NCBI GenBank assembly: GCA_041674105.1
Contig: JBAYWK010000001.1
Span: forward strand, 167,114 to 231,113
Source of the DNA: Minisyncoccota bacterium
GTDB lineage: Bacteria; Patescibacteriota; Minisyncoccia; Phycocordibacterales; DATDWN01
Reading direction: 5' to 3'
DNA length: 64,000 nt
Below are positions 2,572-47,867 of this stretch, piece after piece (position 1 is the stretch's first letter; each line of letters opens with the position of its first letter). A program made the translations under genes and the position numbers. The notes beneath the pieces were generated by a model, which did not search any database, was not told where the DNA came from, and saw nothing but the letters and a program-made list of their open reading frames with translations.

Positions 2572-2589
2572 ATGGGTAGGAGGTGCAAG

Positions 2590-3375
2590 ATGCGCCAAGT
2601 TAATAGTTTTTTGATTTTGGTGCTCTTTTTGAGCACCACCATGATTTTTACAGTTTCGGCTCAGGAGAGCCGGGTTGGGGGCTGGAAGACTGTTCCAGCC
2701 AAGGCCGAGCCGTCTGAGCCGGCGGCAGAAGGTGCCGGGGAAACTCCTCAAGAGGGAGAAAAGTCAGAGGCTAAAAATGCTTCTGAGGCTGGAGTCTCCC
2801 CAGATCCTCTTTCCGAGCTGAAGGCTCATATCTCTGCCAGAGCTGAAGCTTTGGCAGAATTAGAAAAAAGAGAAAAAAATATCGATGAGCTTGAAAAATC
2901 TCTCACTCCTCTTGAGAGGAAAGCCTTCAGACAACTCAAAGAGGAAGCAGAAGCGAGGCGAAAAAGAGAGCTCAGAGACATGAGAGCTCGGATTGAGTCA
3001 AACCTTTCTGGGTGTGAAAAACCAGAAGAGGTCTGGGTCAATGATGACTTCGTTGCGGTTAGGACTTGGCGTGTAAACGCCAAGATTCTGATTCGCAACA
3101 CTAGTGGGGTTACCATTGATGAAATCGTCATCGGTGGGATACCAGCGGTCAAAAATCTGTGCCCCGGTGGGGCGCTTACCCTGACCAGGAAGCTCAATAC
3201 CTGGCAGGATGGTAATTCGCCGAGAATAATCTTCTCGGCCCAAGGAACTTTGGAGGATGGCACCGTCGCCACCTCCGAGAAACGGGTTTATCTTAGTGTT
3301 TGGCAGGCAGAGCAAGAGTTGTCCAAACAGGAGACTTGGGACATCTGTCTGCGCGGGAGCAGATGTCGTAACTAG
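2590..3375 (+). CDS. secreted hypothetical protein (signal peptide, E/A/P-rich linker, coiled coil, C-terminal beta-rich domain); gene is strikingly GC-rich relative to its flanks
   Basis: N-terminus MRQVNSFLILVLFLSTTMIFTVSAQE is a signal peptide. A coiled-coil segment AELEKREKNIDELEKSL...RKRELRDMRARIE follows. GC is visibly around 55% against AT-rich neighbours. Strong SD. Start moved from the track's 2572 to 2590. Confidence 0.6.
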   Translation: MRQVNSFLILVLFLSTTMIFTVSAQESRVGGWKTVPAKAEPSEPAAEGAGETPQEGEKSEAKNASEAGVSPDPLSELKAHISARAEALAELEKREKNIDELEKSLTPLERKAFRQLKEEAEARRKRELRDMRARIESNLSGCEKPEEVWVNDDFVAVRTWRVNAKILIRNTSGVTIDEIVIGGIPAVKNLCPGGALTLTRKLNTWQDGNSPRIIFSAQGTLEDGTVATSEKRVYLSVWQAEQELSKQETWDICLRGSRCRN

Positions 3376-12965: not shown

Positions 12966-13316
12966 GGTAGGAATCTCCCTCAAAAAATCATTTGCCGTCG
13001 CAAGTGATTTTTCTGGGCACCGGTTTGTCGACAAGCTCTGCCGATTTTGTAGACCTCAAATCTCTTCGATTCTGAAAGGGTGCTTTGGCAATGAAAATAC
13101 ATTAGATCCCTAACGAAAAATAGGCTAACGATTCTCAGTAGGAATCTTCCGCGAGTAAAATTTTGCCGTCGCAAAATTTTCTCGTGTCCGCAGCTCGCGA
13201 CCCATCGTGTTCGATGGGTACCCCGCTCCGCTTTTCGATTCCTAACGAAAAGCAATAACATTGCTTTTCTCCGGGAGCACAATATAAAAAACCCAGAGAT
13301 GGGTTTTTTTATATTG
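12966..13316 (-). repeat. tandem pair of GC-rich tRNA-trailer miniature elements downstream of tRNA-Arg(GCG). Each is bounded by a direct copy of the tRNA 3' end GGTAGGAATC: A1 at 12976-13147 and A2 at 13148-13316
   Basis: GGTAGGAATC occurs at 12966-12975, GTAGGAATC at 13139-13147, and again within the tRNA at 13324-13333. A1 carries the 65-nt conserved core at 12976-13043, shared with the elements at 22116 and 26050. A2 carries a degenerate copy. The track's 127-aa ORF at 12980..13363 is an artefact of this region. Confidence 0.6.
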
Positions 13317-13388
13317 TGCTCCCGGTAGGAATCGAACCTACATTTTAACTTCCGCAAAGTCATGTCCTATCCATTGAACGACGGGAGC
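13317..13388 (-). tRNA. tRNA-Arg(GCG)
   Basis: Hand-folded. Acceptor GCTCCCG/CGGGAGC, T-arm GTAGG-TTCGATT-CCTAC, anticodon loop TTGCGGA. The 3' end forms a roughly 25-bp perfect palindrome with the downstream sequence. Confidence 0.7.
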
Positions 13389-17221: not shown

Positions 17222-17935
17222 TTAATATCCGCTAAATTCTTCAGTCCTGATATTGTCTTCATTGGCGCCGGCTTTCATCAGCATCTCGCGCATTGCTTTG
17301 ACCATGCCGACAGGCCCGGACAAGTAATAGATCGGGATGGCGATGTCCAGTATGTACCGCTTTAACATGGCGTCGTCGATATACCCACTCTCTCCACTCC
17401 ATTCGGTTTCGGGAGTATCGGTATAGACGGGGATAAATATGAAATTCTGATTTTCTTTTGCAAAGCCTACCATGTCTGCCGTAAAGGCCGCGTCAGCTGG
17501 GGTTTTGTTAGAATACAAAAGTGTTATCTTGTGTGGCAGGTGGTCGTGCGATGCCTGCGCGATAATGCTTCGTACTGGCGTGATGCCGATGCCGCCAATC
17601 AGGAAGACGGCTGGCGTGGTCTCGTTCTTATGAAGTTTGAAATCTCCATACGGAGCGTCAAATTTTACTTCCGTACCAATGGGAAGATTTTTAAGTACAC
17701 GCTTAAAGGCGGTATCCCGCATACGCGTTGCTGTCACGATATTACTTTCGTATGGTGCGTGAGCGAGAGAAAAACCTCTTGTATTTCCTTCTTCATCGGT
17801 CTCGGGAGGATTGATCAAAGTAATATCGCAAAATTGTCCGGCGACAAATTCGAATCCGGCTGGCTTTTCCCAATAGAAAGCCATTGTACCGTTTGCAATT
17901 TCTTCTTTTTTTGTGAGCTTTATATTGTATATCAT
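17222..17935 (-). CDS. ferredoxin-NADP+ reductase-like FAD/NAD(P)-binding oxidoreductase
   Basis: RGFSLA FAD motif and GGIGITP NAD motif. GC-rich. Confidence 0.6.
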   Translation of the reverse strand: MIYNIKLTKKEEIANGTMAFYWEKPAGFEFVAGQFCDITLINPPETDEEGNTRGFSLAHAPYESNIVTATRMRDTAFKRVLKNLPIGTEVKFDAPYGDFKLHKNETTPAVFLIGGIGITPVRSIIAQASHDHLPHKITLLYSNKTPADAAFTADMVGFAKENQNFIFIPVYTDTPETEWSGESGYIDDAMLKRYILDIAIPIYYLSGPVGMVKAMREMLMKAGANEDNIRTEEFSGY

Positions 17936-17989
17936 GTTATTTTTATGGTTATTTTTTAAACTTCGTTTGAGAATATATAATTTGTCCAT

Positions 17990-18198
17990 TTCTTACTTTT
18001 AAAAAAGACGTGAGTCGATATCTTGTGGCAGAAGTGCAGTTCATGATGTCGTGCACAAGCCAACCCTTTGCGGAAATTTGAATTCCGATTTGTTGCGGTG
18101 ACGATTGCTGGAACTTTGAACCGATAATACGGCTTAGTTACAGCAATGTTGATAAAATTATACGAAAATTAAGGCGAATATACCAAGAAAAGCCGGAC
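17990..18198 (-). repeat. copy 1 of a roughly 200-bp paralogous leader/intergenic element (5' of the oxidoreductase gene, begins at the NUDIX stop)
   Basis: About 70% identical to 18796-19006. Shared blocks TTCTGAGCAAA, GATATC, TTTTATCAACA and ATCGTCACCGC. Confidence 0.5.
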
Positions 18199-18768
18199 TT
18201 ATTCGATATTCCTACTTTTGCTCAGAAGATTTACTAATTTCCTCAACCTCCTCGTCTCAGAAAGCTTGGATCCTGCAAGCCGGGTAGAGGCACCAGTGGA
18301 GGCTATAAGAGTGGCACGCTTGAGCTCCGTCAGTTGGAGTTTCGAAAGATAATCAGTGATCATCTTTCGCGCGGGCGGATTAAAACCACTATATGCTTCT
18401 CCGGCGATGTAGTCTTTTATCGGAACCCAACGCCATTCAGAAAATTTCTCCGGTTCCATGAGCTTGGCTTCTTGATCAGTTGTGCAGTAGAACATCAACA
18501 CCACATCTCCTTCTTTCGCTCCAGGAACTTCGCCAATAAAATCTAAAATTTTCAAATCTGTAATATTAACCTCTTCAGCCGTCTCTCGGCGAAGAGTTTG
18601 CTCGATGGTCTCTCCCAAATCTGATCTACCTCCTGGAATTGTCCAAACGGAAATTTTCTTCCACTTGTCGGGCGTATAGTGGCGATGTCCGGTTAACACT
18701 TTGCCGTCTTTTACAATGACCGCAATCGGACAGGTGATTTCATCTCCTTGTTTTGTAAGTTGTTCGTT
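18199..18768 (-). CDS. NUDIX hydrolase
   Basis: Nudix box GGRSDLGETIEQTLRRETAEEVNI. Start set to MNEQ; the track's start is GTG. Confidence 0.75.
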   Translation of the reverse strand, partial: NEQLTKQGDEITCPIAVIVKDGKVLTGHRHYTPDKWKKISVWTIPGGRSDLGETIEQTLRRETAEEVNITDLKILDFIGEVPGAKEGDVVLMFYCTTDQEAKLMEPEKFSEWRWVPIKDYIAGEAYSGFNPPARKMITDYLSKLQLTELKRATLIASTGASTRLAGSKLSETRRLRKLVNLLSKSRNIE

Positions 18769-18795
18769 CATAGTTCGAATCCCATCAGGGTTCAC

Positions 18796-19006
18796 TCATT
18801 TTATCACTTTTCGGTTTTGAAATGTAGCGCAAAATAAGGGAATTTTAATTGCCACTTTTCAAAACTACTGGCGGTGACGATGTCCCGAAGTTAGAACCAA
18901 TGAGAACGCTTCATTTCAGCCGTGTTGATAAAATTGTACGTGATTTACGGCAAATTTACAGAGAAAACCCAACCTGCTTTGATATCCCCGGATTTGCTCA
19001 GAAAAT
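18796..19006 (-). repeat. copy 2 of the roughly 200-bp paralogous leader element (5' of NUDIX, begins at the deacetylase stop)
   Basis: See copy 1. Confidence 0.5.
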
Positions 19007-19726
19007 CTATTGAGGACGAGCTTTCTGTAACAACTCGGACACTGTCACAAACGTATATCCTTCCTGCTTAAGCGCATCAATTATAAGCGGTAAAGCTTGG
19101 CGTTGTTCGCCACAGGTATCACACAGGGGGTGTAAAAGAATAATGGAACCAGGCCTTGTGTTCTCAATTGCATTGCTCACGAAGAATTCGGTGGTAGTGC
19201 CATAAGTGTCAGGCTCAACATCCCAAATAACCGTTGCTATATCGTGCTTATCCAGATACCACGGTAAGCCCAAGAGTTTCTTACTGTTTGGAGGACGGAA
19301 TGTAATCTTTCCCTCATATCCAGCCTGTCGAATAAGGCGATTTGTGGTTTGGATTTCATTATTTATGAAATCTTGCGATTTGAAGATTATTCTTTGGTGA
19401 GAATATGAATGGTTTCCAAGCTCGTTTCCGTTGGCAACTATCTTTTTTGTTAGATCGGGATATTTTTCGATTTGCTGACCAATTGCGTAAAACGTCGCGG
19501 TTACTTGTTTCTGTGCGAGCACATCAAGCACTTCATTCGTATAAGCAGTCGGCGCATCATCAAAGGTGAGTGCGACCACTTTTTCATCTGTGTCTACTCT
19601 TGTTATCAACACTCCAAAGACCTGATACGTCCTGGAATTCATGAGTTTGTAAGTGCCATACAAGACGACTATCACCGCAAGCAGTATCGCAATTACAATC
19701 AGAAATAGTTTAAAAAATTTATGCAT
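19007..19726 (-). CDS. polysaccharide deacetylase (NodB homology domain), N-terminal TM anchor
   Basis: VALTFDDAPTAYT...ATFYAIGQQ...GNHSYSHQ. Confidence 0.75.
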   Translation of the reverse strand: MHKFFKLFLIVIAILLAVIVVLYGTYKLMNSRTYQVFGVLITRVDTDEKVVALTFDDAPTAYTNEVLDVLAQKQVTATFYAIGQQIEKYPDLTKKIVANGNELGNHSYSHQRIIFKSQDFINNEIQTTNRLIRQAGYEGKITFRPPNSKKLLGLPWYLDKHDIATVIWDVEPDTYGTTTEFFVSNAIENTRPGSIILLHPLCDTCGEQRQALPLIIDALKQEGYTFVTVSELLQKARPQ

Positions 19727-19744
19727 AATTCTAATTTGCCCATT

Positions 19745-19834
19745 TGGCGGAGGAGGTGAGATTCGAACTCACGGTCCCCGTAAAGAGACTCCTGTTTTCA
19801 AGACAGGTGCAATCGGCCACTCTGCCACTCCTCC
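19745..19834 (-). tRNA. tRNA-Ser(TGA) copy 1, CCA encoded
   Basis: Class II tRNA. Anticodon loop CTTGAAA, long variable arm, T-arm GTGAG-TTCGAAT-CTCAC. Confidence 0.85.
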
Positions 19835-19868
19835 ATATTTTATATTATCTTTCCACTGTTTCTACTGT
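19747..19868 (-). repeat. 122-bp direct repeat copy 1 (tRNA-Ser plus 34 bp of its 5' flank), identical to 22277-22398
   Basis: Visible identity through ...ccatattttatattatctttccactgtttctactgt. Confidence 0.8.
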
Positions 19869-19872
19869 TATA

Positions 19873-20454
19873 TTATTTTCTCACAATAAAATGAAAAACA
19901 TGCCAGTGCTTCATATCTCCCTTTGCTGTTGGTCTGTCTGCTTCTTCTTCCTTAAAATCAATAATCTCTAAACCATTCAAAAACTTTTCTGCCTGTTCAC
20001 GAGTCTGAAAATTCATCTTGTGATCTGGAACATTCCACTCATCTTTTTCACCGAAAAATTGTCCGGTAAGTATTCCACCGGTTTTAAGTGAAGAAGTGAT
20101 TGATTTGAAAACTCTTTCAAAAGTGTTTTGTGGATTGAATGGTAAAGAGTATTGTGCATTTATGAGATCGTATTTGTCTTCAACAAAATCAAAATCCTCA
20201 AAAGTACTGATAACATATGAGACAATTTCTGGTGGAAAGTTTTGAATGATGTCTTGAGCAAGAGGTTTACTGTCTACAGCATTAATATGTTTAAAACCTT
20301 TTGAAACGAGGAACTTTACGTCATTCAATGCACCAGAGCCTAAATCCAATGCTTCATTTTTATCATTCACAAAATCCACCGCCTTAACGAGTAGAGGTCG
20401 TGGCTTTATGTCCTTTGTCCGTTCAAAGTATTCTTTCCAAGTATTTTCTGACAT
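19873..20454 (-). CDS. class I SAM-dependent methyltransferase
   Basis: Motif I LDLGSGALND. 193 aa. Confidence 0.6.
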   Translation of the reverse strand: MSENTWKEYFERTKDIKPRPLLVKAVDFVNDKNEALDLGSGALNDVKFLVSKGFKHINAVDSKPLAQDIIQNFPPEIVSYVISTFEDFDFVEDKYDLINAQYSLPFNPQNTFERVFKSITSSLKTGGILTGQFFGEKDEWNVPDHKMNFQTREQAEKFLNGLEIIDFKEEEADRPTAKGDMKHWHVFHFIVRK

Positions 20455-20543
20455 AGTTGCATATTAGCACATAGTTTTTGATAAAGAAAAAGTCCCACCG
20501 TTCGCATTTCGCTACTAGGTGGAACTTGATTCACGGCCGATCC

Positions 20544-21794
20544 TTACGGATGAGTAATGAAAGTGTACTGGCGTTCGGGACTGAGGAGAGCAACTACTTC
20601 CTCCATCTGCTCGAACGTAACCTTTTGCAGATTGTCCCAGACCTCCTGCATGGGAATGATTCGATGATGGTTAACCAATTCACCCGCACATTCTCCACAC
20701 AGACCTGCTCCAGAATGATCGATCATGAGACACTGCTTGATGCAGGACTCGAGCTTGCGATCAAAGAGATCACGCCGTGATGGAACCATTGAGATGCACT
20801 TGCGTACAAGCTCGTTGATATATGGCGTAGCTTCTGGACTGATCTGCCCCTCGATCCGATACTCGCAGACATCCTGTAAATCCTCGAAGTCGATACCGAT
20901 GCTGTATGCGAGTCCACGTTTTTCGCGAACTTCGTCAAACAGAATCTTTCCGAGAACATTGTTGAACACCCTGCGTGCTTGTCGAGGAAAATCTAACGGA
21001 AACGCCCACGTTGCTTTGTAGCCCGTCTGATCAACCTTGAAGTTGACGTGGTCGGACATCTTCACTGTGTGAGACTGTTCCATTGGGATTGCAAATTGAT
21101 TGAACATTGAAGGAATAGGATTTCTCCGTCCCTCCTTTTGCTTTCCAAACGGACTCCGTTCAAGCTCGGCGATTACTTCTTCGGTCGTGAGACCTCCGAG
21201 AATTACCAAGCTCATGTTGGCTGGCGTGTAGTGTTGGTCGTAGAAACCTTGCAGGTCAGCTTCCGTTGCCGAAAGAAAACCCTCAGGACGACCAAGTGGA
21301 CGATTGTACGTTTCGAGACGATGCCCTTTGAAAAGCGATCGTCGTATTGTCATATCCCATTCCAATTTTTCAAGGAATGGGTACCGCTGATTGAACTCGC
21401 GGTAGATGACTTTACGTTCTCTTTCAATATCCTTTTCGAGACGAGCTTCGAGAAGCATCGAACCGAAAATTGAAATTACTTCTCGAAATGTCGACAAATC
21501 TGCTGGAACAGCAAACTTGTATCGAGTTGAGAGGTAGTTGGTCCTACCATACTCCGCTCGACCACCAACGCTCTCGATAAACTGCTTCACCGAGTCGTGT
21601 GTACGATTCGGAATGTTTTGACTGACACAATGTTCAACGAAGTGAGCGACACCAGGCATCTTGACCTGATCTTCGCGTGCTCCGCTGTGAACGACGATCT
21701 CCATTCTAATCCAAGGACGATCCTGGGACATCGAATGAATTTCAAGACCGTTCGGAAGAGCACATTTGTTGAAACCTACATACGGATCGTACAT
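20544..21794 (-). CDS. M16-family zinc peptidase (pitrilysin-like)
   Basis: HFVEH zinc motif plus downstream ERERKVIYREF glutamates. GC around 48%, clearly above the genome background. Confidence 0.75.
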   Translation of the reverse strand: MYDPYVGFNKCALPNGLEIHSMSQDRPWIRMEIVVHSGAREDQVKMPGVAHFVEHCVSQNIPNRTHDSVKQFIESVGGRAEYGRTNYLSTRYKFAVPADLSTFREVISIFGSMLLEARLEKDIERERKVIYREFNQRYPFLEKLEWDMTIRRSLFKGHRLETYNRPLGRPEGFLSATEADLQGFYDQHYTPANMSLVILGGLTTEEVIAELERSPFGKQKEGRRNPIPSMFNQFAIPMEQSHTVKMSDHVNFKVDQTGYKATWAFPLDFPRQARRVFNNVLGKILFDEVREKRGLAYSIGIDFEDLQDVCEYRIEGQISPEATPYINELVRKCISMVPSRRDLFDRKLESCIKQCLMIDHSGAGLCGECAGELVNHHRIIPMQEVWDNLQKVTFEQMEEVVALLSPERQYTFITHP

Positions 21795-22095
21795 TTCTTC
21801 TCCTCTTTTTCGTGGTGAATTTGATGGTTACAAAGAATTTAGTCCATGCCTATTTTAGCACACTTAATGCCACTATGTCAATAGCACCCTTGTTTTTCCA
21901 TAAAGAGCGAGTACTGAAACTTGAACAGTTTTCTCTCTATGCTTCGGATTACGTTTCTTTATTCACTCGCATATATCAACTACTCGAAAAGTATCGGATG
22001 ACTGATGAGCTGACTGGAATAGGAATAGGTGTCAGGTACCGTTTTTTTACTTCAATCTCAAAAAATTAAAAACACCCCGAAGGGTGTCTTTAATT

Positions 22096-22277
22096 TGCGG
22101 AGGAGGTGAGAGTTTCTCCCTCGAAAAATCACTTGCCGTCGCAAGTGGTTTTTCTGGGCACCGGTTTGTCGACAAGCCCTGCTGGGCTCGTAGACCGACA
22201 AACCGTTCGAATCTCACCCGAAAAACTTTCAGTTTTTCTTCCACCCAAACAAAAAACACCTAACGGTGTTCTTGTTT
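22096..22277 (-). repeat. tRNA-trailer miniature element B downstream of tRNA-Ser copy 2, bounded by a 15-nt direct copy of the tRNA 3' end (gcggaggaggtgaga at 22096-22110)
   Basis: Conserved core tccctcgaaaaatcacttgccgtcgcaagtggtttttctgggcaccggtttgtcgacaagc at 22116-22176. Inverted copy of the Ser T-arm ccgttcgaatctcacc at 22201-22216. Confidence 0.6.
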
Positions 22278-22364
22278 GCGGAGGAGGTGAGATTCGAACT
22301 CACGGTCCCCGTAAAGAGACTCCTGTTTTCAAGACAGGTGCAATCGGCCACTCTGCCACTCCTC
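22278..22364 (-). tRNA. tRNA-Ser(TGA) copy 2 (identical body, CCA not encoded)
   Basis: Identical to copy 1. Confidence 0.85.
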
Positions 22365-22375
22365 CATATTTTATA

Positions 22376-35182: not shown

Positions 35183-36007
35183 ATGATATTTTCTGGCACA
35201 CAAATTAGAGATGAAATAATACCTAAATTAAGACAGGGTTTTTCTTTGCTAGAGTATAAATCTCAGTTAGTTATAGTTCAAATAGGTGAAAACGAGGTTT
35301 CTTCTGTCTATATAAATCAAAAGAAGAAAATCGGGGATTCTTTAGGGGTAAAAGTTTTGAGTATAAATTTGTCTGAAGAAGTGGAAGAAAATGAAATACT
35401 GGATGTTATCTCTGGATATAATGATGATGAAGAAACTCTAGGAATAATTGTTCAACTACCAATTCCAGATAAATTTGATACTAGAAAGATTTTGGATTCT
35501 ATAAAACCCGAAAAGGATATAGATGGCCTTGGCTCTATTCAAACAGGATTTCTTTTAACCAAAAATCCAAAAGCTTTTGTGCCAGCTACCGCCAGAGGTG
35601 TTTTGTCTATTTTGGATTATTACAAAGTAGAATTAAGTGGTACGGATGTGGTAATTGTCGGTAGATCAAATCTAGTAGGGTTACCCACTGCTATTTCCTG
35701 TATACATAGAGATGCTACTGTAACTGTGTGTAATTCTCATACTAAAAACCTAGATCAAATAACAAGTAAGGCAGATATTCTAATTGTGGCTTGTGGTAAG
35801 CCAAAATTGATTACTGAAAACTTCATTAAAAAAGGAGCTATTGTGATAGATATTGGTATACATAAAATAGAAAAAGGTCTTTGTGGGGATGTTGATTTTG
35901 AAAAAGTTTCAGAAAAAGTTTCTGGTATAACACCGGTTCCAGGGGGAGTAGGGCCTTTGACCGTTATCTCTTTATTTCAAAATCTTCTGGATGCCTCAAA
36001 GAGGTAG
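35183..36007 (+). CDS. folD: bifunctional methylenetetrahydrofolate dehydrogenase/cyclohydrolase
   Basis: GRSNLVGLP...ATVTVCNSHT...PVPGGVGPLT. Confidence 0.85.
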   Translation: MIFSGTQIRDEIIPKLRQGFSLLEYKSQLVIVQIGENEVSSVYINQKKKIGDSLGVKVLSINLSEEVEENEILDVISGYNDDEETLGIIVQLPIPDKFDTRKILDSIKPEKDIDGLGSIQTGFLLTKNPKAFVPATARGVLSILDYYKVELSGTDVVIVGRSNLVGLPTAISCIHRDATVTVCNSHTKNLDQITSKADILIVACGKPKLITENFIKKGAIVIDIGIHKIEKGLCGDVDFEKVSEKVSGITPVPGGVGPLTVISLFQNLLDASKR

Positions 36008-37806: not shown

Positions 37807-38229
37807 ATGGCAAAAAAGATTATTAAAAGACTAAAGCTGATCATAGAAGGGGGTAAAGCTACTCCCGCTGGAACAACAGGTCCAGCTCTAGGTCAAGCTG
37901 GTGTAAATATTGGTGAATTTGTAAAACAATTCAATGATGCTACCTCAAAACAAATGGGTGAGGTTATTCCTGTAGAAATCTCTGTTTATGAAGATAGGAC
38001 TTTCTCTTTTATTACTAAAACTTCTCCTGCGACAAACCTAATACTTAAGGCCTTAGGAAAAGATAAAGGTTCAGGAAAAGCAAACACTTCTAAAATAGGT
38101 TCAATAACAAAGGCTCAGTTGAAAGAAATTGCTGAGAAGAAGATGGCTGACTTGAATGCTAACGATATTGATGCAGCGATGAAAATAATTGCTGGTTCTG
38201 CTAGAAGCATGGGGGTTGATGTGAAATAG
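37807..38229 (+). CDS. rplK: 50S ribosomal protein L11
   Basis: [34 protein letters not shown]. Confidence 0.9.
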
Positions 38230-38233
38230 GTAA

Positions 38234-38356
38234 CATCAACCGATCTTTTGAGGTGTTTTGTTCGATTAGAAACAAAAGACCCAAAGGATGTACTGATCCT
38301 GTAAGGATTTGATGTGAATTAAAGAACATCAGCCGATCTTTTGAGGTGTGTTGTGG
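38234..38356 (+). repeat. two 29-nt direct repeats (acatcaRccgatcttttgaggtgtKttgt) 94 bp apart in the position where rplA normally sits
   Basis: Copies at 38234-38262 and 38328-38356 with 27 of 29 identical bases. Hairpins lie between them. Confidence 0.6.
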
Positions 38357-38528
38357 ATAATATACTTGACTTTTTACATCGATCTATATTATACTAATTA
38401 GACAAAAGGTGCCTTCGGGTACCTTTTGTATTTTTATATTAAAGAATAAATACTAATATTTGAAAAGTGTTTAATTGCATATTTATATGGTATGACTAGT
38501 TCAGATTCTGTTCATTGAGGAGGAAGAA

Positions 38529-39143
38529 ATGGCGACAGTCAAAGAAATTTTGAATGCAGGAAGTTCTGTACAAAGCAAGTACATGGCTTCATTCGAAGAA
38601 TTGGGTGGAGTAGTTTCTCTATTCAAAGCTTCTGGATACAAAATTGTCCTGACCCAAGGTGTGTATGACATGTTTCATGTTGGTCATGGAAGATACATAC
38701 TTGAAGCAGCTTCTCATGGCGATATTTTAATCATAGGAGTAGATTCTGACGAATTGACTAAGTCAATGAAAGGACCTGGTCGTCCTTTTGATGATTTCGA
38801 TCAGAGGATTGAAGTCCTAGCAATGCTCTCTGCGGTTAATATCATTGTAAAAAGAGATCTGGGTCAAGATAAGTATGATCTTATTAAACTTGTTAAACCA
38901 GACGTTTTGATTATGTCTCAAACAACTCGGTCTTTTGGAGAAGAAGACGTTGAAAATCTAAAAGACTTCTGTGGTAAAATAGAGTGGTTAGAGGCAAAAG
39001 CAGCACAAACAACCACAGCTAAACTCAGACGAATGGCTGATGAGCACGGTTTAGAAACAGCCAAGAGAATTGTTGAGGCTATGAACCCTGTTTTAGAGCC
39101 TCTTGGAGCAAAAATTCAAGTGGTTGTGAATGGAGGAAAATAA
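38529..39143 (+). CDS. cytidylyltransferase-family nucleotidyltransferase (HxGH; TagD/RfaE-domain-II-like)
   Basis: GVYDMFHVGHGRYL...IIGVDSDELTKSMKGPGRPFDDFDQRIEVLAML. Strong SD GAGGAGG. Confidence 0.6.
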   Translation: MATVKEILNAGSSVQSKYMASFEELGGVVSLFKASGYKIVLTQGVYDMFHVGHGRYILEAASHGDILIIGVDSDELTKSMKGPGRPFDDFDQRIEVLAMLSAVNIIVKRDLGQDKYDLIKLVKPDVLIMSQTTRSFGEEDVENLKDFCGKIEWLEAKAAQTTTAKLRRMADEHGLETAKRIVEAMNPVLEPLGAKIQVVVNGGK

Positions 39144-39144
39144 G

Positions 39145-39987
39145 ATGGCTAATCTTGTAGCTTATATTCCAGTCCTAAACTACCGGCACATAGAGTGGTT
39201 TAGAAAACATTCTAATAGCAGTCTCCATCTGATTTCGCAAGAAATGGCCGAAAGTCTCCTCCCAAGATTATCTAGGAACATGGTTGCTGTGCCCACGGGC
39301 ATTACGGCTAAATCAATTATTGCCAATGAACTTTGCAGAAGAGTCTGTGATTTTAACTCAAAAATAGGATTTTTTGCTGGACGGGAGTTCATTCTTCCAG
39401 ATGAGGATATTTCTCATCTAGTAGCAGAAAGATACCTATTAGATTCTATATCTCATTTTGAAAGGATTTGGTCTAGATGGGATATGACAGCGGTTAAAGC
39501 ATCTCAGCCAATTATTTCAGACTGTGAAATCAGTCTGGATGAAACTGATTTTTCTAGAATTTTTCAATCCAACCAGATTTCTCAAAGATCTCCGGATTGG
39601 TGGAGACAGGTTGGAATAATAGCGTTTAGAGAGGACAGACTGTTGGCTTGTGGTTGGAATGAACACTTTCCTACAGAGTATGAAACGGGCATTTTTGGAG
39701 ATCCTCGTCTAAATTTCGATGCAGGTGATCCTTCTGGCATGGATGCTTATGTTTCTCTTCATGCTGAAGAGTATCTAATTGCCTTCTGTTCTCGGGAAGG
39801 GATTTCACTTGAAGGAGCATCTCTATACATAAATACATTTCCTTGTGGCCGATGTGCAAGAGCACTATCTCTGACAGGCGTCAAAGAACTTTTTTTTGGA
39901 GAAGGATATAGCTTCCTTAAAGGGTTCGATGTCCTTTCCAGTAAAGGTATAAGGATTGTGCATGTAAAAGACCCCAGATCAGCCTAA
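39145..39987 (+). CDS. dCMP/cytidine deaminase-family zinc enzyme with an N-terminal extension of about 150 aa of unknown function
   Basis: C-terminal HAEEYLI...TFPCGRCA zinc motif. SD GGAGGA 7 nt before the ATG at 39145. The track's start at 39130 overlaps the upstream gene. Confidence 0.55.
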   Translation: MANLVAYIPVLNYRHIEWFRKHSNSSLHLISQEMAESLLPRLSRNMVAVPTGITAKSIIANELCRRVCDFNSKIGFFAGREFILPDEDISHLVAERYLLDSISHFERIWSRWDMTAVKASQPIISDCEISLDETDFSRIFQSNQISQRSPDWWRQVGIIAFREDRLLACGWNEHFPTEYETGIFGDPRLNFDAGDPSGMDAYVSLHAEEYLIAFCSREGISLEGASLYINTFPCGRCARALSLTGVKELFFGEGYSFLKGFDVLSSKGIRIVHVKDPRSA

Positions 39988-40010
39988 GGCTGACTGGGGT
40001 CTATTTTTTG
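39971..40010 (+). terminator. terminator: palindrome GACCCCAGATCAGCC-taa-GGCTGACTGGGGTC followed by a T-run
   Basis: 14-bp stem and T6. Confidence 0.6.
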
Positions 40011-40453
40011 TGCCCAAGGGTAACAAGTAATCTATTTTCTTGGTTCATTTTTTTTGTTTTCTTTTTCCCAACTAAAAAATGAAAATGTAGATGATCCAAA
40101 GTTGCGCCTGTGTAAGCCATATCTCCAGATCTTATAAAAACTGAATAGCCTTTTACTTTTAATTTATTTTTTAACCATTTTATTGATTTAAAAAAATCTA
40201 ATCCAGATTTATCACTGATTTCTTCGGTATCTTTTATATGTTTTTTACTTACTATTAAGTAATGGTGTTCTGCTCCCTGATAAGGGAAATCATTGGCTGT
40301 TATAAACCAGTATTTGTTGCTATGTATTATTGGAGAGGAGTGAGTTAATTTAAATCCATTTTTACAAAAATGACATTCATTATTTTTTTTAAGTTCCTGC
40401 ATTTTACGAGTCTGTTCAGGATGTCTACTGTTATCTAAGTTCATTTTTATCAT
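40001..40453 (-). CDS. HIT-superfamily protein, GalT/Apa2-like branch (CxFC zinc motif plus HxHxH)
   Basis: CHFCK and LDHLHFHFLVG. Confidence 0.5.
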   Translation of the reverse strand: MIKMNLDNSRHPEQTRKMQELKKNNECHFCKNGFKLTHSSPIIHSNKYWFITANDFPYQGAEHHYLIVSKKHIKDTEEISDKSGLDFFKSIKWLKNKLKVKGYSVFIRSGDMAYTGATLDHLHFHFLVGKKKTKKMNQENRLLVTLGHKK

Positions 40454-40527
40454 AAGTAATCATATTTTATCATTTTTATTAAAAAAGCAAGTCGCCTCGG
40501 CTTACGCCTCGGCGACTTGTGTTATTT

Positions 40528-41487
40528 TTAGACCACAGCATCTGCCAGTTTCATTGCCGGATGATACTTGTAGTCTTTTAGGTCGAAATGAGTAGAACGA
40601 AAATCAAGGATGTTTTTTATTCTTTTTCCCTCTTCTGTTAGATGCATACTAGGAAAGGGAAATGATGTTCGGTTGATTATTTCATCGACCTCTCCCATAT
40701 GCCGTTCGTATATCTGACAATCATGCGGAGCATGGATAAACAGACCCGGTTCGTGACCAGTAATATTACATATTGCAAGCATCAGTGCTGCATATTGAAT
40801 CATATTTGAAGGAACTCCAATTGGGAAATCAGCAGACCTTTGATCCATCCGTAGATTAAGTTTGTCATTTAGGATGGTGATTTGTATATCACCATGACAT
40901 GGGGCCACCACAACCTTTCTAACCATTTCTTCGTGCTGAAGACAGTATTGAGGTATCCATGTACTTACCTTGTGAGTTCTTATTTCTGGATACTTTTTAA
41001 TCTGTTTTATCAAATTAACTATTTGGTTAAATGGTTTTGGTATCCACTTACCTCCATCTGGATATCCCAGAATGTTTTGCCAATCAAAATGGGGGAAAGA
41101 TGCAAATGCTGGACCATAAGATCCTGGACCCATATCGTATGGTTCAAGACCAAATTGGGCACATTTTTCAGGTGTCGCCCAACTTTTTTGCCACCAGTCA
41201 ACACCCCAATCTTCTGCTAGTATTCTGGCATCTCTTACGCCGTTTATAAATGCAAACAGTTCAGAGATAGGCTTTCTCCAAAAACCAATTTTTCTTTCAG
41301 TCAGTATAGGGAAGCCGTTACAGAGATCAAATTCCATAGGAGGAACAGTTAAAGAAGTATATGTTCCGTCTGTTTGGAACCTGCTTTTTGTAAAAACTCC
41401 AGTTTCTTTTATCATTCTAAGACGGTTTTTGTATTGTGTGTCAGGCACCCTCTTGTTTAAGGGTAAATAATTCGGTTCCATTTTCAT
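40528..41487 (-). CDS. thyA: thymidylate synthase ThyA-type (divergent)
   Basis: FDLCNGFPILTERK, catalytic APCH, DQRSADFPIGVPSNMIQYA (Asn of dUMP specificity). The second Arg of the RR pair is replaced (EIRTHK). Confidence 0.65.
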   Translation of the reverse strand: MKMEPNYLPLNKRVPDTQYKNRLRMIKETGVFTKSRFQTDGTYTSLTVPPMEFDLCNGFPILTERKIGFWRKPISELFAFINGVRDARILAEDWGVDWWQKSWATPEKCAQFGLEPYDMGPGSYGPAFASFPHFDWQNILGYPDGGKWIPKPFNQIVNLIKQIKKYPEIRTHKVSTWIPQYCLQHEEMVRKVVVAPCHGDIQITILNDKLNLRMDQRSADFPIGVPSNMIQYAALMLAICNITGHEPGLFIHAPHDCQIYERHMGEVDEIINRTSFPFPSMHLTEEGKRIKNILDFRSTHFDLKDYKYHPAMKLADAVV

Positions 41488-41554
41488 CTCCTTTCAAAGA
41501 TCGACTCTAGCGAGATACGATCATTTATTTGTTTTTAGTCAAAAAGAAAGCGCT

Positions 41555-42133
41555 TTATGGGCGCTTTTTGTAAGTAACAAATTTGTAAGACATCCCTGTT
41601 TTGGAAAGATGTTCTTCGGATGAATCAACCCGCCATTCTTTTCCGAGTTCGGGGAAATAGGCTGTTCCATCTATATCTGTATTTATGTGGGTTGCAATAA
41701 CCCTATCTGCAAAAGGAAGAAAAATTTTGTAGACATCTTCTCCTCCACAGATAAAGATCTTTTGTCCATATTTTTGGATTTTACGTGCTTTAGCAAGTGC
41801 TTCGCGCACGCTGTGTACAATAAAGACATTATCGTAATCACATTTCCATTCTTTGTTTTTTGTTAAGACTATAGAAATTCTTCCCGGGAGGGGTTTTCCT
41901 AAGATCTCCAAAATATTTTGGAAAGTTGATCTTCCAAAGATACAAATATTTTCAAAAGTGGTTTTTTTGAAGTGTTGCATATCTTCTGGTAGGTGCCAGA
42001 GCATACCCTCAACACCTTTGTTTCCAATAACATTTCTTTTTGCCATGGCTACAATTATTGTGAGTTTGGATGTCTTAATATTGTTTAAATCTTCATAATG
42101 AACAGTTTTTCTTTTTCTCGTTGCCGGGGTCAT
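41555..42133 (-). CDS. folA: dihydrofolate reductase
   Basis: IIVAMAKRNVIG...LWHLPEDMQHFKKTT...GRSTF...PLPGRISIVLT...GGEDVY. Confidence 0.75.
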   Translation of the reverse strand: MTPATRKRKTVHYEDLNNIKTSKLTIIVAMAKRNVIGNKGVEGMLWHLPEDMQHFKKTTFENICIFGRSTFQNILEILGKPLPGRISIVLTKNKEWKCDYDNVFIVHSVREALAKARKIQKYGQKIFICGGEDVYKIFLPFADRVIATHINTDIDGTAYFPELGKEWRVDSSEEHLSKTGMSYKFVTYKKRP

Positions 42134-42203
42134 TTCTTTATTCCTTTCTTCTGATCCGAATGCTATCCTTTATAAAAATCAAAGTCAATGATATTATGGC
42201 TTT

Positions 42204-42626
42204 ATGATTTTAAAGGTTAAAAAACTTGATTCAGAAGCAATTTTGCCAAATTATGCGCATAGTTGGGATGCTGGGATAGATATGTTTTCAGTTGAAGATG
42301 TTACACTAGTTCCTGGTCAAATAGGTAAAATAAAAAGTGGTATAGCCGTAGAGATTCCAGAAGGTTTTGTTGGTCTTTGTTGGGATAAAAGTGGTTTATC
42401 TATGAACCATTCAATAAAAGTTATGGGTGGGGTGATAGATTCTGGGTTTAGAGGAGAGATTATTTTTGGAGTAATTAACCTAGGAAAAGAAAATTATACT
42501 TTTAAAAAAGGGGACAAGGTTTTACAGATGCTTATTCAGAAGGTTGAAAAAGTAGAGGTTGTGGAATTTAAAGAACTTTCTTTCACAGATAGAGGAGAAA
42601 AAGGTTTTGGAAGTACGGGAAAATAA
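42204..42626 (+). CDS. dut: dUTP diphosphatase
   Basis: AGIDMF and SGLSMN motifs. 140 aa. Confidence 0.8.
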   Translation: MILKVKKLDSEAILPNYAHSWDAGIDMFSVEDVTLVPGQIGKIKSGIAVEIPEGFVGLCWDKSGLSMNHSIKVMGGVIDSGFRGEIIFGVINLGKENYTFKKGDKVLQMLIQKVEKVEVVEFKELSFTDRGEKGFGSTGK

Positions 42627-44423: not shown

Positions 44424-47400
44424 ATGAAAGAAGAAGAGTCTAATAAAAGTGAAGTTGTCCAAAAAGAAGAAAAAATACTAGATTTTTGGCAAAAAAACAA
44501 AATTTTTGAAAAAACTTTGGAAAAAGAAAATCCAGAAGGCAATTTTGTTTTTTTCGATGGGCCACCTTTTGCAACTGGACTCCCTCATTACGGGCATATT
44601 TTGCCTGGAACAGTAAAAGATTTAATACCGAGGTATCAGACAATGAAAGGGAAGAAGGTCTTGCGTCGTTGGGGCTGGGATTGTCATGGATTACCAATAG
44701 AAAACTTGATAGAAAAAGAACTCGGTCTTTCTAGTAAAAGAGACATAGAAAAATATGGAGTAGAAAAATTTAACTTGGCTGCCAGAAATGCTGTGTTTAG
44801 ATACAGGGATGAATGGAAAAAAATAATTCCACGCTCTGGTAGATGGGTTGATATGGAAAATGATTACCGAACAATGGATTCAACTTATACTGAGTCTGTC
44901 TGGTGGTCTTTTAAAAATCTTTATGATAAAAAACTAATTTATAAAGATTTCAAAACAATGCATATTTGTCCGCATTGTGAGACAACTCTTTCAAATTTAG
45001 AGGTCAGTCAAGGTTACAAAGACATAACAGATATTTCTGTATACGTAAAAGTAAAACTTTTAGACGAAGAAAATACATTTGCTTTGATATGGACAACAAC
45101 TCCTTGGACTCTTCCTGGAAATGTAGCTTTGGCTGTAAATCCAGATTTTGATTATGTAAAAGCGAAAAAAGGTGATGTTTTTTTTATCTTATTAAAAGAT
45201 CTTGCTCTAAAAGTTTTGAAAGACAACTATGAAATCGTAGATGAATTTAAGGGAAAGAAGCTTGTAGGTAAATCATATGAGCCAATTTTCTCGTATTATA
45301 AAAATTCAAACTTGGATAATTTAGAAAATGCTTGGAAAATATATGATGCGGATTTTGTTGATGTAGAAACAGGAACAGGAATTGTTCATATCGCTAGTGC
45401 TTTTGGTGAAGATGATATGAATTTGGGTAAAAAAAATGAATTACCTTTTATTCAACATGTTGGTATGGATGGAACTTTTAAAGAGGAGGTTTCTTTTTTA
45501 GCTGGGCAAAAAGTTAAACCCATAGAGGATCATCAAAAATCAGATGTGGAAATAATAAAATATCTAGCGAAAGAAGGAAGTTTGTTTGCTAAAGAAAAAA
45601 TAATTCACTCTTATCCTCATTGCTGGAGATGTGCTACACCTCTTTTGAATTACGCTACCTCTTCTTGGTTTGTTAAGGTTACTCTCTTGAAAGATAAGAT
45701 GATAGATTTAAATAATAAAATAAACTGGAAGCCGGCTTTTATTGGGGAAGGTAGATTTGGTAATTGGTTGGAGGGAGCAAGAGATTGGAGTATTTCTCGG
45801 GGAAGGTTTTGGGGAGCACCTCTTCCTGTATGGGAAAATGAATCTGAAGAAAGATTTGTTATAGGTTCAGTAGAAGACCTAAAAAATTATATAGGAAGAA
45901 AAAACAAATATTTTCTAATGAGACATGCTGAGTCAGAAGACAATGCCCATGGCAACCTAATTAATTCTAAAGATACGACCATAAATCCTCTTACCGAAGA
46001 AGGTATTTCGCAAGCTAAAGCCTCTGTCAAAAATCTAAAAGATAAAAAAATAGATCTAATAATTCATTCTCCTTTTCTTCGCACAAAACAAACAAGTCAA
46101 ATAATTGCCGAAGAATTGGGTATACCCAAAGAATCTGTCTTGGAAGAAGAAAAAATAGTGGAATTACAAGCGGGGGAATATGATAGGAAATCATGGGAAG
46201 AGTTTATAGAAAACTTTTCTTCTATAAAAGAGAAGTTTGAAAAGAACATTGGGGAAGCTGAATCATGGGAAGATGTGAGAAAAAGATCAATGAGCTTTAT
46301 TTATGATATAGATTCAAAATATGAAGGTAAAAATATCTTGATCGTAAGTCACGGAGCTCCTCTAAATCTTATAATGATGGGGTCTAGAGGTTTTTCTACA
46401 AATCAGATGATTAAGTATTTTCATAGCGATATCTTTAGTAATGCTGAAATAAAAGAATGTGATTTTGTCTCTCTCCCTCATAATGAAAAATATGAAATAG
46501 ATTTGCATAGACCTTATATAGATGATGTCGTTCTTAAGGATAAAAAAGGGAATCTTTTGAAAAGAGTTCCAGAGGTTTTTGATACTTGGTATGACTCTGG
46601 ATCTATGTCTTTTGCTCAACAACATTATCCTTTTGAAAATAAAGAGTTATTTGAGTCTAAAAATAATTCTCTATTTCCAGCGGATTTTATAGCTGAAGGA
46701 TTGGACCAGACTAGAGGTTGGTTTTATACACTACTTGTTTTGGGCACAGGTCTATTTAATAAATCTCCATACAATAGTGTGATTGTGAACGGTTTGGTTT
46801 TGGCTGAGGACGGTAGAAAAATGTCAAAGAGTTTGAAAAACTATCCAGATCCGATGGATATAATAAATAAATATGGAGCAGATGCTTTAAGGTATTACCT
46901 CATGTCTTCTTCTGTTGTTAGAACTGAAGATCTAAATTTTTCGGAAAAAGGTGTAGACGAGATATATAAAAAACTTATACAAAAGATTTATAACGTCCTA
47001 TCTTTTTATCAGATGTATTCTACAGATTATGTTTCTGTATATGAAAAAAGTTCAAATGTACTGGACCAATGGATTGTTTATAGGTTAAAAGAGTTGTTGG
47101 ACACAGTTACTAAACATTTAGATAGTTACGAAATAGAGAAAGCAGCAAGACCTATAATGGATTTTGTTGAAGATTTATCTACTTGGTATATAAGGAGATC
47201 TAGGGAAAGATTTAAATCAGATAACTTTCAAGATAGAAAAGATGTTTCTGATACGACATCATATATTTTAAAAGAATTATCAAAAATAATGGCTCCCATA
47301 ACACCTTTTATTGCTGAAGAGGTTTATTTGGAAATAACAAAAGGTTTAAAAAAGGAAAGTGTTCATTTAGAAAAGTGGCCAAATTTGAAAGAAATAGTTA

Positions 47401-47867
47401 TTGACCAAAATGTTTTAGATAATATGTCCAAAACTAGAGAAATTGTTTCAAAAGCTTTAGATCTGAGACAAGCTTCAGGTATAAAAGTAAGACAACCATT
47501 AGCATCTTTGATTGTAGAGGATAATTTATCAGAAGAATTTTTTAATATAATTGCTGATGAGGTTAATGTTAAGAAGGTCAGCCCTTCTCCAAGCCCGTCT
47601 CAGGAAAATTTTGAAATGTTTTTAGATACAAATATAACAGACGATCTTTTTGAAGAAGGCTTAGCTAGAGAGATAATAAGAGAGATTCAGGATTTAAGGA
47701 AAAAGGAAAATTTTGACCCAAATCAAAAAGTAAAAATAAAATTACTATCTGATAAAAAAACAAAAAATATCTTTGATAAATATCTTGAGATGATATCTAA
47801 AGTAACCCTGGTTTCAGAAGTTGAATATGAAGAAAGTGACGAAAGGTCTATTTCTGTCATAGTTTAA
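44424..47867 (+). CDS. ileS: isoleucyl-tRNA synthetase (type 2) with an inserted histidine-phosphatase (PGAM-like) domain of about 205 aa
   Basis: HYGH, WTTTPWTLPGN, KMSKS. The insert at roughly nt 45885-46500 contains LMRHAESEDN and LIVSHGAPL, placed between ...PVWENESEERFVIGSVEDL and DLHRPYIDDV. Confidence 0.85.
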   Translation: MKEEESNKSEVVQKEEKILDFWQKNKIFEKTLEKENPEGNFVFFDGPPFATGLPHYGHILPGTVKDLIPRYQTMKGKKVLRRWGWDCHGLPIENLIEKELGLSSKRDIEKYGVEKFNLAARNAVFRYRDEWKKIIPRSGRWVDMENDYRTMDSTYTESVWWSFKNLYDKKLIYKDFKTMHICPHCETTLSNLEVSQGYKDITDISVYVKVKLLDEENTFALIWTTTPWTLPGNVALAVNPDFDYVKAKKGDVFFILLKDLALKVLKDNYEIVDEFKGKKLVGKSYEPIFSYYKNSNLDNLENAWKIYDADFVDVETGTGIVHIASAFGEDDMNLGKKNELPFIQHVGMDGTFKEEVSFLAGQKVKPIEDHQKSDVEIIKYLAKEGSLFAKEKIIHSYPHCWRCATPLLNYATSSWFVKVTLLKDKMIDLNNKINWKPAFIGEGRFGNWLEGARDWSISRGRFWGAPLPVWENESEERFVIGSVEDLKNYIGRKNKYFLMRHAESEDNAHGNLINSKDTTINPLTEEGISQAKASVKNLKDKKIDLIIHSPFLRTKQTSQIIAEELGIPKESVLEEEKIVELQAGEYDRKSWEEFIENFSSIKEKFEKNIGEAESWEDVRKRSMSFIYDIDSKYEGKNILIVSHGAPLNLIMMGSRGFSTNQMIKYFHSDIFSNAEIKECDFVSLPHNEKYEIDLHRPYIDDVVLKDKKGNLLKRVPEVFDTWYDSGSMSFAQQHYPFENKELFESKNNSLFPADFIAEGLDQTRGWFYTLLVLGTGLFNKSPYNSVIVNGLVLAEDGRKMSKSLKNYPDPMDIINKYGADALRYYLMSSSVVRTEDLNFSEKGVDEIYKKLIQKIYNVLSFYQMYSTDYVSVYEKSSNVLDQWIVYRLKELLDTVTKHLDSYEIEKAARPIMDFVEDLSTWYIRRSRERFKSDNFQDRKDVSDTTSYILKELSKIMAPITPFIAEEVYLEITKGLKKESVHLEKWPNLKEIVIDQNVLDNMSKTREIVSKALDLRQASGIKVRQPLASLIVEDNLSEEFFNIIADEVNVKKVSPSPSPSQENFEMFLDTNITDDLFEEGLAREIIREIQDLRKKENFDPNQKVKIKLLSDKKTKNIFDKYLEMISKVTLVSEVEYEESDERSISVIV

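Follow-up and report, generated by a model that had tools for sequence, protein, structure and literature searches.

The closest described relatives of the genes discussed here include the dCMP deaminases and the thymidylate synthases. The dCMP deaminases bind dCTP and dTTP at an allosteric G(Y/W)N(A/G) motif (PMC12088426) and have a second, structural zinc site that is made up of two cysteines and one histidine in an insert after strand 2 (PMC3239186). In the thymidylate synthase of the Vibrio VAAP clade a glycine is naturally found at R127'. This enzyme is active with a raised Km for dUMP, mutagenesis found the residue to be permissive, and R179' of the L. casei enzyme was reported to be non-essential (PMC6005164). 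One report places the supply of dCMP from dCTP upstream of dCMP deaminase in human cells, with DCTPP1 acting before DCTD (PMC7162842). Here, a block of six genes at 38529-42626 is examined in a stretch of 64,000 nucleotides (64 kb) from a Minisyncoccota bacterium (GenBank assembly GCA_041674105.1, contig JBAYWK010000001.1, positions 167,114 to 231,113 of the forward strand), which will be referred to as the window and whose first letter is position 1. The block is a native and probably vertically inherited dTMP-synthesis cluster of this Candidatus Paceibacterota (Patescibacteria) genome. As judged from gene order, ThyA and a zinc deaminase are locked in a four-gene core together with a nucleotidyltransferase (NTase) that is coupled to the deaminase and a HIT protein that appears to be co-transcribed with ThyA and dihydrofolate reductase (DHFR).

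A first-pass annotation made from the letters of the window had placed six genes in the block. The list of open reading frames (ORFs), Pfam and NCBIfam bear out each of them in both position and family. The genes and their main parts are as follows.

38529-39143, + strand: HxGH nucleotidyltransferase (NTase), 204 amino acids (aa); PF01467, E 1.6e-12; motifs TQGVYDMFHVGHGRY, MKGPGRPF and TTTAK

39132-39147, + strand: coupling junction; Shine-Dalgarno sequence (SD) GGAGGA at 39132-39137, NTase stop TAA at 39141-39143, deaminase ATG at 39145

39145-39987, + strand: N-extended dCMP-type deaminase gene; dCMP_cyt_deam_1 matches aa 150-252 only

39145-39510, + strand: deaminase N-terminal domain (N-domain), aa 1-122, a putative pseudo-NTase; motifs AYIPVLNYRH, PDEDISH and RWD

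39526-39987, + strand: zinc deaminase domain, aa ~128-280; PF00383; motifs SPDWWRQ, NxHxP, GDPR, HAE and PCxxC

40001-40453, - strand: HIT-superfamily protein, 150 aa; PF01230; CxFC (C27-H-F-C30), WPY-type loop, HLHFHF

40528-41487, - strand: ThyA, 319 aa, with R127 replaced by Thr; PF00303, E 3.7e-52; TIGR03284, 129 bits vs a cut-off of 108

41555-42133, - strand: DHFR, 192 aa; PF00186, E 8e-43, 146 bits; the Pfam match starts at aa 24

42204-42626, + strand: dUTPase (dut), 140 aa; TIGR00576, 133.7 bits vs a cut-off of 102.55

The HIT and deaminase genes are convergent with 13 bp between their stops, and HIT is the last gene of a DHFR-ThyA-HIT unit.

Homologues of the deaminase all come from Patescibacteria, and one protein annotated from a Candidatus Paceibacterota MAG matches it at 100% identity. 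With one genome taken per species, at least 490 species genomes were found to have a relative of the deaminase, and neighbours were counted at the best-scoring 80 of these loci. The NTase is directly upstream and on the same strand in 80/80, and the pair recurs in this way across differing flanks. The HIT gene is directly downstream of the deaminase and convergent with it in 76 of the loci; of the four without it, two end within ~200 bp of the deaminase and two show 1.9-3.6 kb without HIT or ThyA. ThyA stands beside HIT in ~75 loci, DHFR is close by but switches sides, and SHMT and dut are often present without being fixed (27/80 loci have dut within 7 kb). In Zambryskibacteria and Vogelbacteria the gene order is nusG-rplK-NTase-deaminase-HIT-DHFR-ThyA-SHMT-(dut)-argS-ileS, which is the context of the window itself. 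Additionally, three further genomes keep the core, with NTase and deaminase facing ThyA and DHFR/HIT, amid unrelated flanks (superoxide dismutase and BacA; MBOAT and S6-SSB-S18; topA and NAD synthase), and the core recurs in the related loci examined down to ~30% deaminase identity.

These placements bear on the proposal that the block is richer in G+C than its flanks and could be an accessory thymidylate module acquired horizontally or from a phage. Phages commonly carry the ThyA, DHFR, dCMP deaminase and dUTPase families. From NTase to dut the G+C content of the six genes is 0.39, 0.40, 0.285, 0.39, 0.36 and 0.34, compared to a mean of 0.344 (standard deviation (sd) 0.046) for the 64 long ORFs of the window. 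The enrichment is therefore real, with four of the six genes about one sd above the window mean, but it is modest and uneven: it falls mostly on codon positions 1 and 2 and is absent from HIT and dut. The G+C content at third codon positions (GC3) is 0.21-0.31 in the block, within the range of the window (0.264, sd 0.074). No integrase, repeat or tRNA boundary was found at the block, each cluster gene is single-copy in the window, and neither ThyX nor SHMT was found there. All six families have PHROG matches, which carry no information on origin. An accessory module of phage origin fails as an explanation because the same nusG-rplK...argS-ileS position is occupied in distant Paceibacteria. With the core also kept between unrelated flanks, a composition that is only mildly deviant and the island of the window lying instead at 17222-21794, we regard it as highly improbable.

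The NTase and deaminase genes are joined by the sequence GGAGGA-AAA-TAA-G-ATG, in which the SD is a strong one. The translational coupling claimed for them was confirmed in its SD and in the proximity of stop and start, while the gap between the two codons was corrected from 2 nucleotides (nt) to 1 nt. The start of the deaminase is placed at 39145 because its homologues begin with M-x-N-L-I-A-Y. The two reading frames share 4-8 nt in relatives. The NTase itself scores 48.2 bits with PF01467 (cut-off 21) and 51.7 bits with TIGR00125 (cut-off 27.7), and it has FHVGH as well as a C-terminal QTTTAK of the (R)xxGxSTT type. The HxGH, KGxxRP and S/T-T-T motifs are kept in 81/84 orthologues, and this conservation is consistent with nucleotide binding and probably with catalysis.

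The closest curated model to the NTase is HldE domain II (TIGR02199), with a score of 90 bits, and its nearest PDB entries are HldC (5x9q), ECT (3elb) and TagD (2b7l). Public annotations call the protein rfaE domain II. It could accordingly be read as an ordinary envelope-glycan enzyme that acts on a sugar or polyol phosphate, of the ADP-heptose or CDP-glycerol type, with its position next to the deaminase being functionally meaningless. HldE domain II and TagD are indeed the nearest curated models, but the scores are far under the equivalog cut-offs (90 vs 181.5 bits for HldE domain II; 36 vs 165 bits for TagD, TIGR01518). The gene is adjacent and coupled to the deaminase in all 80 loci whatever the flanks, and no heptose, glycerol-phosphate or glycosyltransferase genes are nearby. 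We consider an unrelated envelope enzyme to be very unlikely.

In one Zambryskibacteria lineage (MHWB01000003.1; loci L001, L002 and L012) the NTase (L001:5355-6008) is without HxGH, where it reads LSDAH, and without STT, where it reads PEHTSDEF. The gene has nonetheless been kept, with 8 nt running into the start of the deaminase gene. With these motifs lost, the role for which it is retained there cannot be nucleotidyl transfer. This protein looks like a pseudo-enzyme partner of the deaminase, and its retention suggests that the NTase-deaminase pairing serves a structural or regulatory purpose.

The NTase and the N-extended deaminase had been singled out as an unusual and uncharacterised pair, and this description stands. 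The first ~120 aa of the deaminase and the linker have no match in Pfam, NCBIfam or PDB sequences, the family profile has no PDB match before profile position 128, and the N-domain is neither a RibD reductase nor another routine partner. In a phmmer search of 1.84 billion representative proteins the domain was confined to the N-termini of these ~280-aa deaminases or to fragments. A single exception of 403 aa (P0256) was a repetitive false positive. An AlphaFold2 model of the N-domain, made from 69 homologues, has a pLDDT of 92. The residues that come directly after strand 1 are P-[VA]-[LI]-H-x-G-[YH] in most family members, with HKGH in four, and this H-x-G-[YH] matches the HxGH signature in position and form. 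In the clade of the window the same position reads L-N-x-R-H (LNYRH) and is decayed. The invariant R111 of the RWD motif is modelled after strand 5, where the arginine of the cytidylyltransferase RTxGISTT motif sits. The N-domain is predicted, with moderate confidence, to be a degenerate cytidylyltransferase (HUP) fold, that is, a pseudo-NTase. The confidence is only moderate because two comparisons were not significant: Foldseek of the model against the PDB gave only generic Rossmann-like matches with E values of at least 0.15, and hhalign of the N-domain against the NTase family gave a probability of 0.3%, with the HxGH position as the sole aligned piece.

The zinc domain of the deaminase scores 41.3 bits with PF00383 (cut-off 25), and H206-A-E208 and P233-C-x-x-C237 are invariant in the family. 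The family profile matches whole dCMP deaminase domains, from cyanophage S-TIM5 (4p9c, 3e-21) through S. mutans (2hvv), T4 (1vq2) and human (2w4l), with E values ranging to 8e-16. The allosteric G(Y/W)N(A/G) motif is present in 0/84 members (the window reads GWNE) and the second-zinc cysteines are absent, as the insert after strand 2 has 0-1 Cys in all 84. The family instead has motifs of its own (SPDWWRQ, NxHxP and GDPR), and its score of 39 bits is below the ComEB equivalog cut-off of 219.

An extended deaminase could also be a dCTP deaminase, a zinc-enzyme equivalent of Dcd in which the cytidylyltransferase-like domain or the NTase binds the triphosphate and the dUTP formed passes to the neighbouring dUTPase. 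Cytidylyltransferase folds bind CTP, there are weak local matches to models of anti-phage dCTP deaminases, and dut adjoins the cluster here and comes within 7 kb in the 27 loci given above. The extended, DCTD-like CDADC1, for which a triphosphate-binding lysine cluster is described, acts on dCTP, and activity on triphosphates is cited for the deaminases of PBCV-1 and XP-12 (PMC12088426). Nevertheless, dCMP deaminases match best over the full domain, dut is outside the invariant core, and a dCTP deaminase would leave the HIT protein without a role. We consider this activity doubtful.

The local matches to defence models also underlie the proposal that the NTase and deaminase are a nucleotide-depleting pair directed against phages. 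The zinc core is locally similar to NF041025 (50 bits) and to the PADLOC dCTPase model (E 7e-14 over 62 residues). These matches cover ~60 of 437-630 model positions (337-394 of 437 for NF041025; 438-499 of 630 for PADLOC), with 50 vs 400 bits, and the kinase-like N-domain of the anti-phage dCTP deaminases is absent. No PADLOC match was obtained for the NTase, the HIT protein or the other cluster genes. The fixed partners are ThyA, DHFR and HIT rather than defence genes, the neighbours are housekeeping genes, and the block is conserved and syntenic in the lineage. The proposal of a depleting pair is not supported by these results, and we give it next to no credence.

The ThyA sequence was compared to 78 cluster-linked relatives, with residues in E. 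coli numbering. The second arginine of the RR pair had been noted as replaced, and this is correct: the window reads EIRTHKVSTW vs DDRRIIMCAW elsewhere, so that R127 of E. coli is Thr. Position 127 is also Thr in 71/78 relatives and is Arg in 1/78. Past the RT motif there is an insertion (WIPQY..H). In the R21 column 76/78 relatives have a residue other than Arg (I, P, T or Q in 73/78) and the window has Arg, although this alignment has indels nearby and the R21 call is less certain than that at R127. The complete set of four phosphate-site arginines (R21, R126', R127' and R166) is not carried by the family. C146, H147, E58, W80, Y94, Q165 and D169 are kept in 78/78, R166, S167 and N177 in 77/78, and Y209 in 74/78, with Phe in the other four; the window has C146, E58, W80, Y94, H147, R166, S167, D169 and N177, the last of which we take to mark uracil specificity. 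DHFR is nearly always near the cluster ThyA. From the residues kept, this protein is a genuine thymidylate synthase of the dUMP type, with dihydrofolate as a product. Given the Vibrio VAAP-clade precedent, the substitution of R127 alone implies no new substrate. It is nevertheless notable that one arginine has been lost throughout the family and, apparently, a second in most members.

The HIT protein scores 32.7 bits with PF01230 (cut-off 21.5). C27, C30, W49, H72, R108, G110, H121 and H123 are invariant across 57 orthologues, and the third residue of the triad varies between H, Q, N and S; it is often Gln, and an HxHxQ variant occurs. The protein had been labelled GalT/Apa2-like, which has to be revised. 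In a comparison of the family profile to the PDB the closest solved relatives are small Hint-type HIT hydrolases (6e-8), followed by Fhit (7e-5), with GalT (8e-4) and Ap4A phosphorylase (3e-3) weaker, and the Ap4A_phos_N domain matches 1/57 members. Some public pipelines annotate family members as 'ATP adenylyltransferase' and many members are without a precomputed Pfam assignment. DHFR-HIT fusions of 311-366 aa, with DHFR N-terminal and HIT C-terminal, are encoded in at least six Patescibacteria loci (L005/L006:6858-7793; L016:5335-6267; L047:7893-8990; L053:7830-8768; L063:7791-8729; L076:4211-5149). The HIT protein is thus independently tied to the thymidylate cycle. Full-text literature searches for gene association returned nothing relevant on an association of HIT with ThyA or DHFR.

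The ThyA and HIT results allow for a scheme in which the nucleotide is carried through the pathway with a substituted phosphate rather than as a free monophosphate. The NTase would make dCDP-X from dCTP and a phosphate acceptor X, the cytidylyltransferase-like N-domain would hold dCDP-X while the deaminase converts it to dUDP-X, and the arginine-poor ThyA would methylate the esterified nucleotide. Finally, the HIT protein, via a nucleotidyl-histidine, would free dTMP or form dTDP or dTTP by transferring the nucleotide to Pi or PPi. If true, this scheme would explain why two nucleotidyl-transfer enzymes are fixed in the cluster, why the allosteric site has been lost, why HIT is fused to DHFR in some loci and why the phosphate pocket of ThyA is remodelled. 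In its favour, the deaminase and ThyA have two nucleotidyl-transfer enzymes as constant neighbours, the NTase keeps its catalytic motifs in nearly all orthologues, and the deaminase is without the classical dCMP-deaminase features. Additionally, a pocket that is less cationic, through loss of R127 in 77/78 relatives and a non-Arg R21 column in most, would suit a substituted phosphate, and the third triad residue of HIT is often Gln as in the transferase GalT. On the other hand, neither X nor a gene for making it is found in the cluster, one lineage keeps the cluster with a motif-less NTase, and dUTPase together with dCMP-type deaminase chemistry already explains the supply of dUMP. We know of no ThyA that uses an esterified nucleotide. 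The loss of R127' is by itself compatible with a normal dUMP enzyme, as in the Vibrio clade with its Gly and at R179' of L. casei (PMC6005164). A carrier-bound pathway is, in our judgement, unlikely.

We favour, with somewhat better than even confidence, a housekeeping dTMP cluster in which the NTase pairs with the pseudo-NTase domain of the deaminase and the HIT protein supplies or processes pyrimidine deoxynucleotides. Confidence in each specific step is lower than in the overall picture. By family assignment, dUTPase converts dUTP to dUMP, ThyA methylates dUMP and DHFR recycles the dihydrofolate, and the zinc deaminase is predicted to convert a deoxycytidine nucleotide to a deoxyuridine nucleotide. 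The context is that of the folate cycle, with FolD near the block and SHMT within the cluster in relatives. The N-domain would be a decayed copy of a cytidylyltransferase fold that forms a pseudo-heterodimer with the upstream NTase, similar to the tandem domains of ECT, which unites two cytidylyltransferase domains in one unit. We infer this heteromer because of the invariant adjacency, the translational coupling and the presumed shared fold of the two partners. The pairing would yield a 1:1 NTase-deaminase complex, and this module may replace the lost dCTP/dTTP allosteric site by binding, and possibly processing, (d)CTP. The HIT protein would act via a nucleotidyl-histidine intermediate and may produce the monophosphate used by the deaminase and ThyA from a pyrimidine deoxynucleoside di- or triphosphate or from an NDP-X. 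This role can be likened to that of DCTPP1 upstream of DCTD in human cells.

Several points weigh against this housekeeping picture. The conservation of the NTase motifs in 81/84 orthologues is explained no less well by true catalysis than by a purely regulatory role. No NTase-deaminase fusion protein is found among the top 120 matches of either the NTase or the deaminase search, so a physical association is read from gene order and coupling alone. The neighbour counts were made by tblastn on the best-scoring loci and are not a random sample of the at least 490. The full-length model of the deaminase has two confident domains, with the relative placement of the two uncertain (pTM 0.68) because the linker is modelled at low confidence (pLDDT 61-75). 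Lastly, the activities of the NTase, HIT protein and N-domain are all deduced from sequence, and no acceptor substrate can be named.

Further features of the region are as follows.

35183-36007, + strand: FolD (methylene-tetrahydrofolate dehydrogenase/cyclohydrolase); PF00763 and PF02882; folate-cycle context gene

38366-38395, + strand: candidate promoter TTGACT-18-TATACT in the rplK-NTase spacer; 10/12 in a consensus scan, the top promoter-like site of the region

38402-38437, + strand: 12-bp hairpin and T-run directly 3' of the candidate promoter, read from the sequence

42134-42203: divergent DHFR/dut spacer of 70 bp, with promoter-like hexamers on both strands (consensus scan; not above regional chance)

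FolD is syntenic in relatives and has the same position in the Zambryskibacteria locus L001/L002. The ATG of argS (42628) is 1 nt past the dut stop (42626), and dut, argS and ileS thus look co-transcribed. The argS domains begin at aa 3 of the 42628 frame; a TTG start at 42559 that was given by the ORF finder is probably not the true start of argS. At the other end of the block, rplK is not followed by rplA in the window, and ~40 nt at the 3' end of rplK and just downstream of it (38215-38255) are repeated at 38300-38350, before the candidate promoter. In the window ileS (44424-47867; 1147 aa) a His_Phos_1 (phosphoglycerate-mutase-like) domain with an RHAES motif is inserted at aa 497-667 (E 1.8e-32), and the same insertion is annotated in the Vogelbacteria IleRS orthologue (L003/L004).

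The true compositional island of the window is at 17222-21794, where four of five genes have a G+C content of 0.42-0.48 and a GC3 of 0.42-0.49; most other ORFs of the window have a GC3 of 0.2-0.3. The four outliers encode an NAD-binding oxidoreductase, a NUDIX hydrolase, a polysaccharide deacetylase and an M16 peptidase, and the fifth gene, encoding a methyltransferase, is ordinary. Two tRNA-Ser(UGA) genes (19745-19834 and 22278-22365) bracket the methyltransferase and peptidase in the right-hand part of the island, and the two copies are identical over the tRNA and ~55 nt upstream. These features suggest that a tRNA gene was the site of an insertion or duplication over 17222-22365. An ORF of 267 aa at 2572-3375 is a further outlier, well over the average of the window with a G+C content of 0.50 and a GC3 of 0.51, and has no Pfam match. 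A 127-aa ORF at 12980-13363 (- strand; G+C 0.435) overlaps tRNA-Arg(GCG) at 13316-13388 and has no Pfam match, nor was any credible Rfam family besides the tRNA found there at a permissive threshold; the ORF may be spurious, or an unannotated RNA may lie there.

The component families of the cluster are known and its general purpose is ordinary. As far as literature searches on gene association reach, the four-gene core, the pseudo-NTase-deaminase fusion, the DHFR-HIT fusions and the arginine-poor ThyA subfamily are new. The Patescibacteria (candidate phyla radiation, CPR) are a large share of bacterial diversity and are mostly uncultured, living on scavenged nucleotides. Their DNA-precursor balance is poorly understood, and the cluster offers a testable entry to an undescribed step, or regulation, of dTMP synthesis. 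In the deaminase, the classical allosteric site appears to have been given up in favour of a decayed nucleotidyltransferase domain. The four proteins of the core are small and soluble and can be expressed and assayed. The results also correct public annotations in which the NTase is listed as an ADP-heptose enzyme and the deaminase as an ordinary dCMP deaminase.

In comparison to known systems, the deaminase shares with the dCMP deaminases (DCTD, ComEB and T4 Cd) the HAE and PCxxC zinc motifs and has the ThyA neighbour expected of a dUMP supplier. It differs from them by an N-domain of ~120 aa that is unique to its architecture and by having neither the allosteric motif nor the second-zinc cysteines. 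A parallel is found in CDADC1, whose N-terminal domain is inactive and architectural and is fused to an active DCTD-like domain, canonical allostery having become obsolete (PMC12088426). The deaminase family profile matches CDADC1 (9hfq) at E 6e-9. In CDADC1 the N-terminal position is taken by a second deaminase domain that has been inactivated, whereas the N-domain of the window enzyme has a putative nucleotidyltransferase fold; unlike the window deaminase, CDADC1 keeps GYNA and has no NTase or HIT partner.

The NTase resembles ECT (3elb/4xsv), TagD, CCT and HldC by sequence and the N-domain resembles them by its putative fold, with ECT as the model for the pairing. In ECT the two domains are in one unit, whereas the modules of the window are separate, coupled polypeptides with the degenerate one fused to the deaminase, and the cluster differs from the setting of HxGH cytidylyltransferases in having no phospho-alcohol or sugar-phosphate pathway genes nearby. 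The thymidylate synthase of the Vibrio VAAP clade is without the same one of the four phosphate-binding arginines as the window ThyA. The window enzyme has Thr rather than Gly at this position, an insertion, relatives that mostly are also without R21, and a neighbourhood of NTase, deaminase and HIT genes. Finally, the HIT protein shares HxHxH, CxFC and a single domain of ~150 aa with the HIT hydrolases and transferases (Hint, Fhit, GalT and Ap4A phosphorylase). It is set apart from the known HIT proteins as a divergent family with a variable third triad residue that is fixed beside ThyA and, in several genomes, fused to DHFR.

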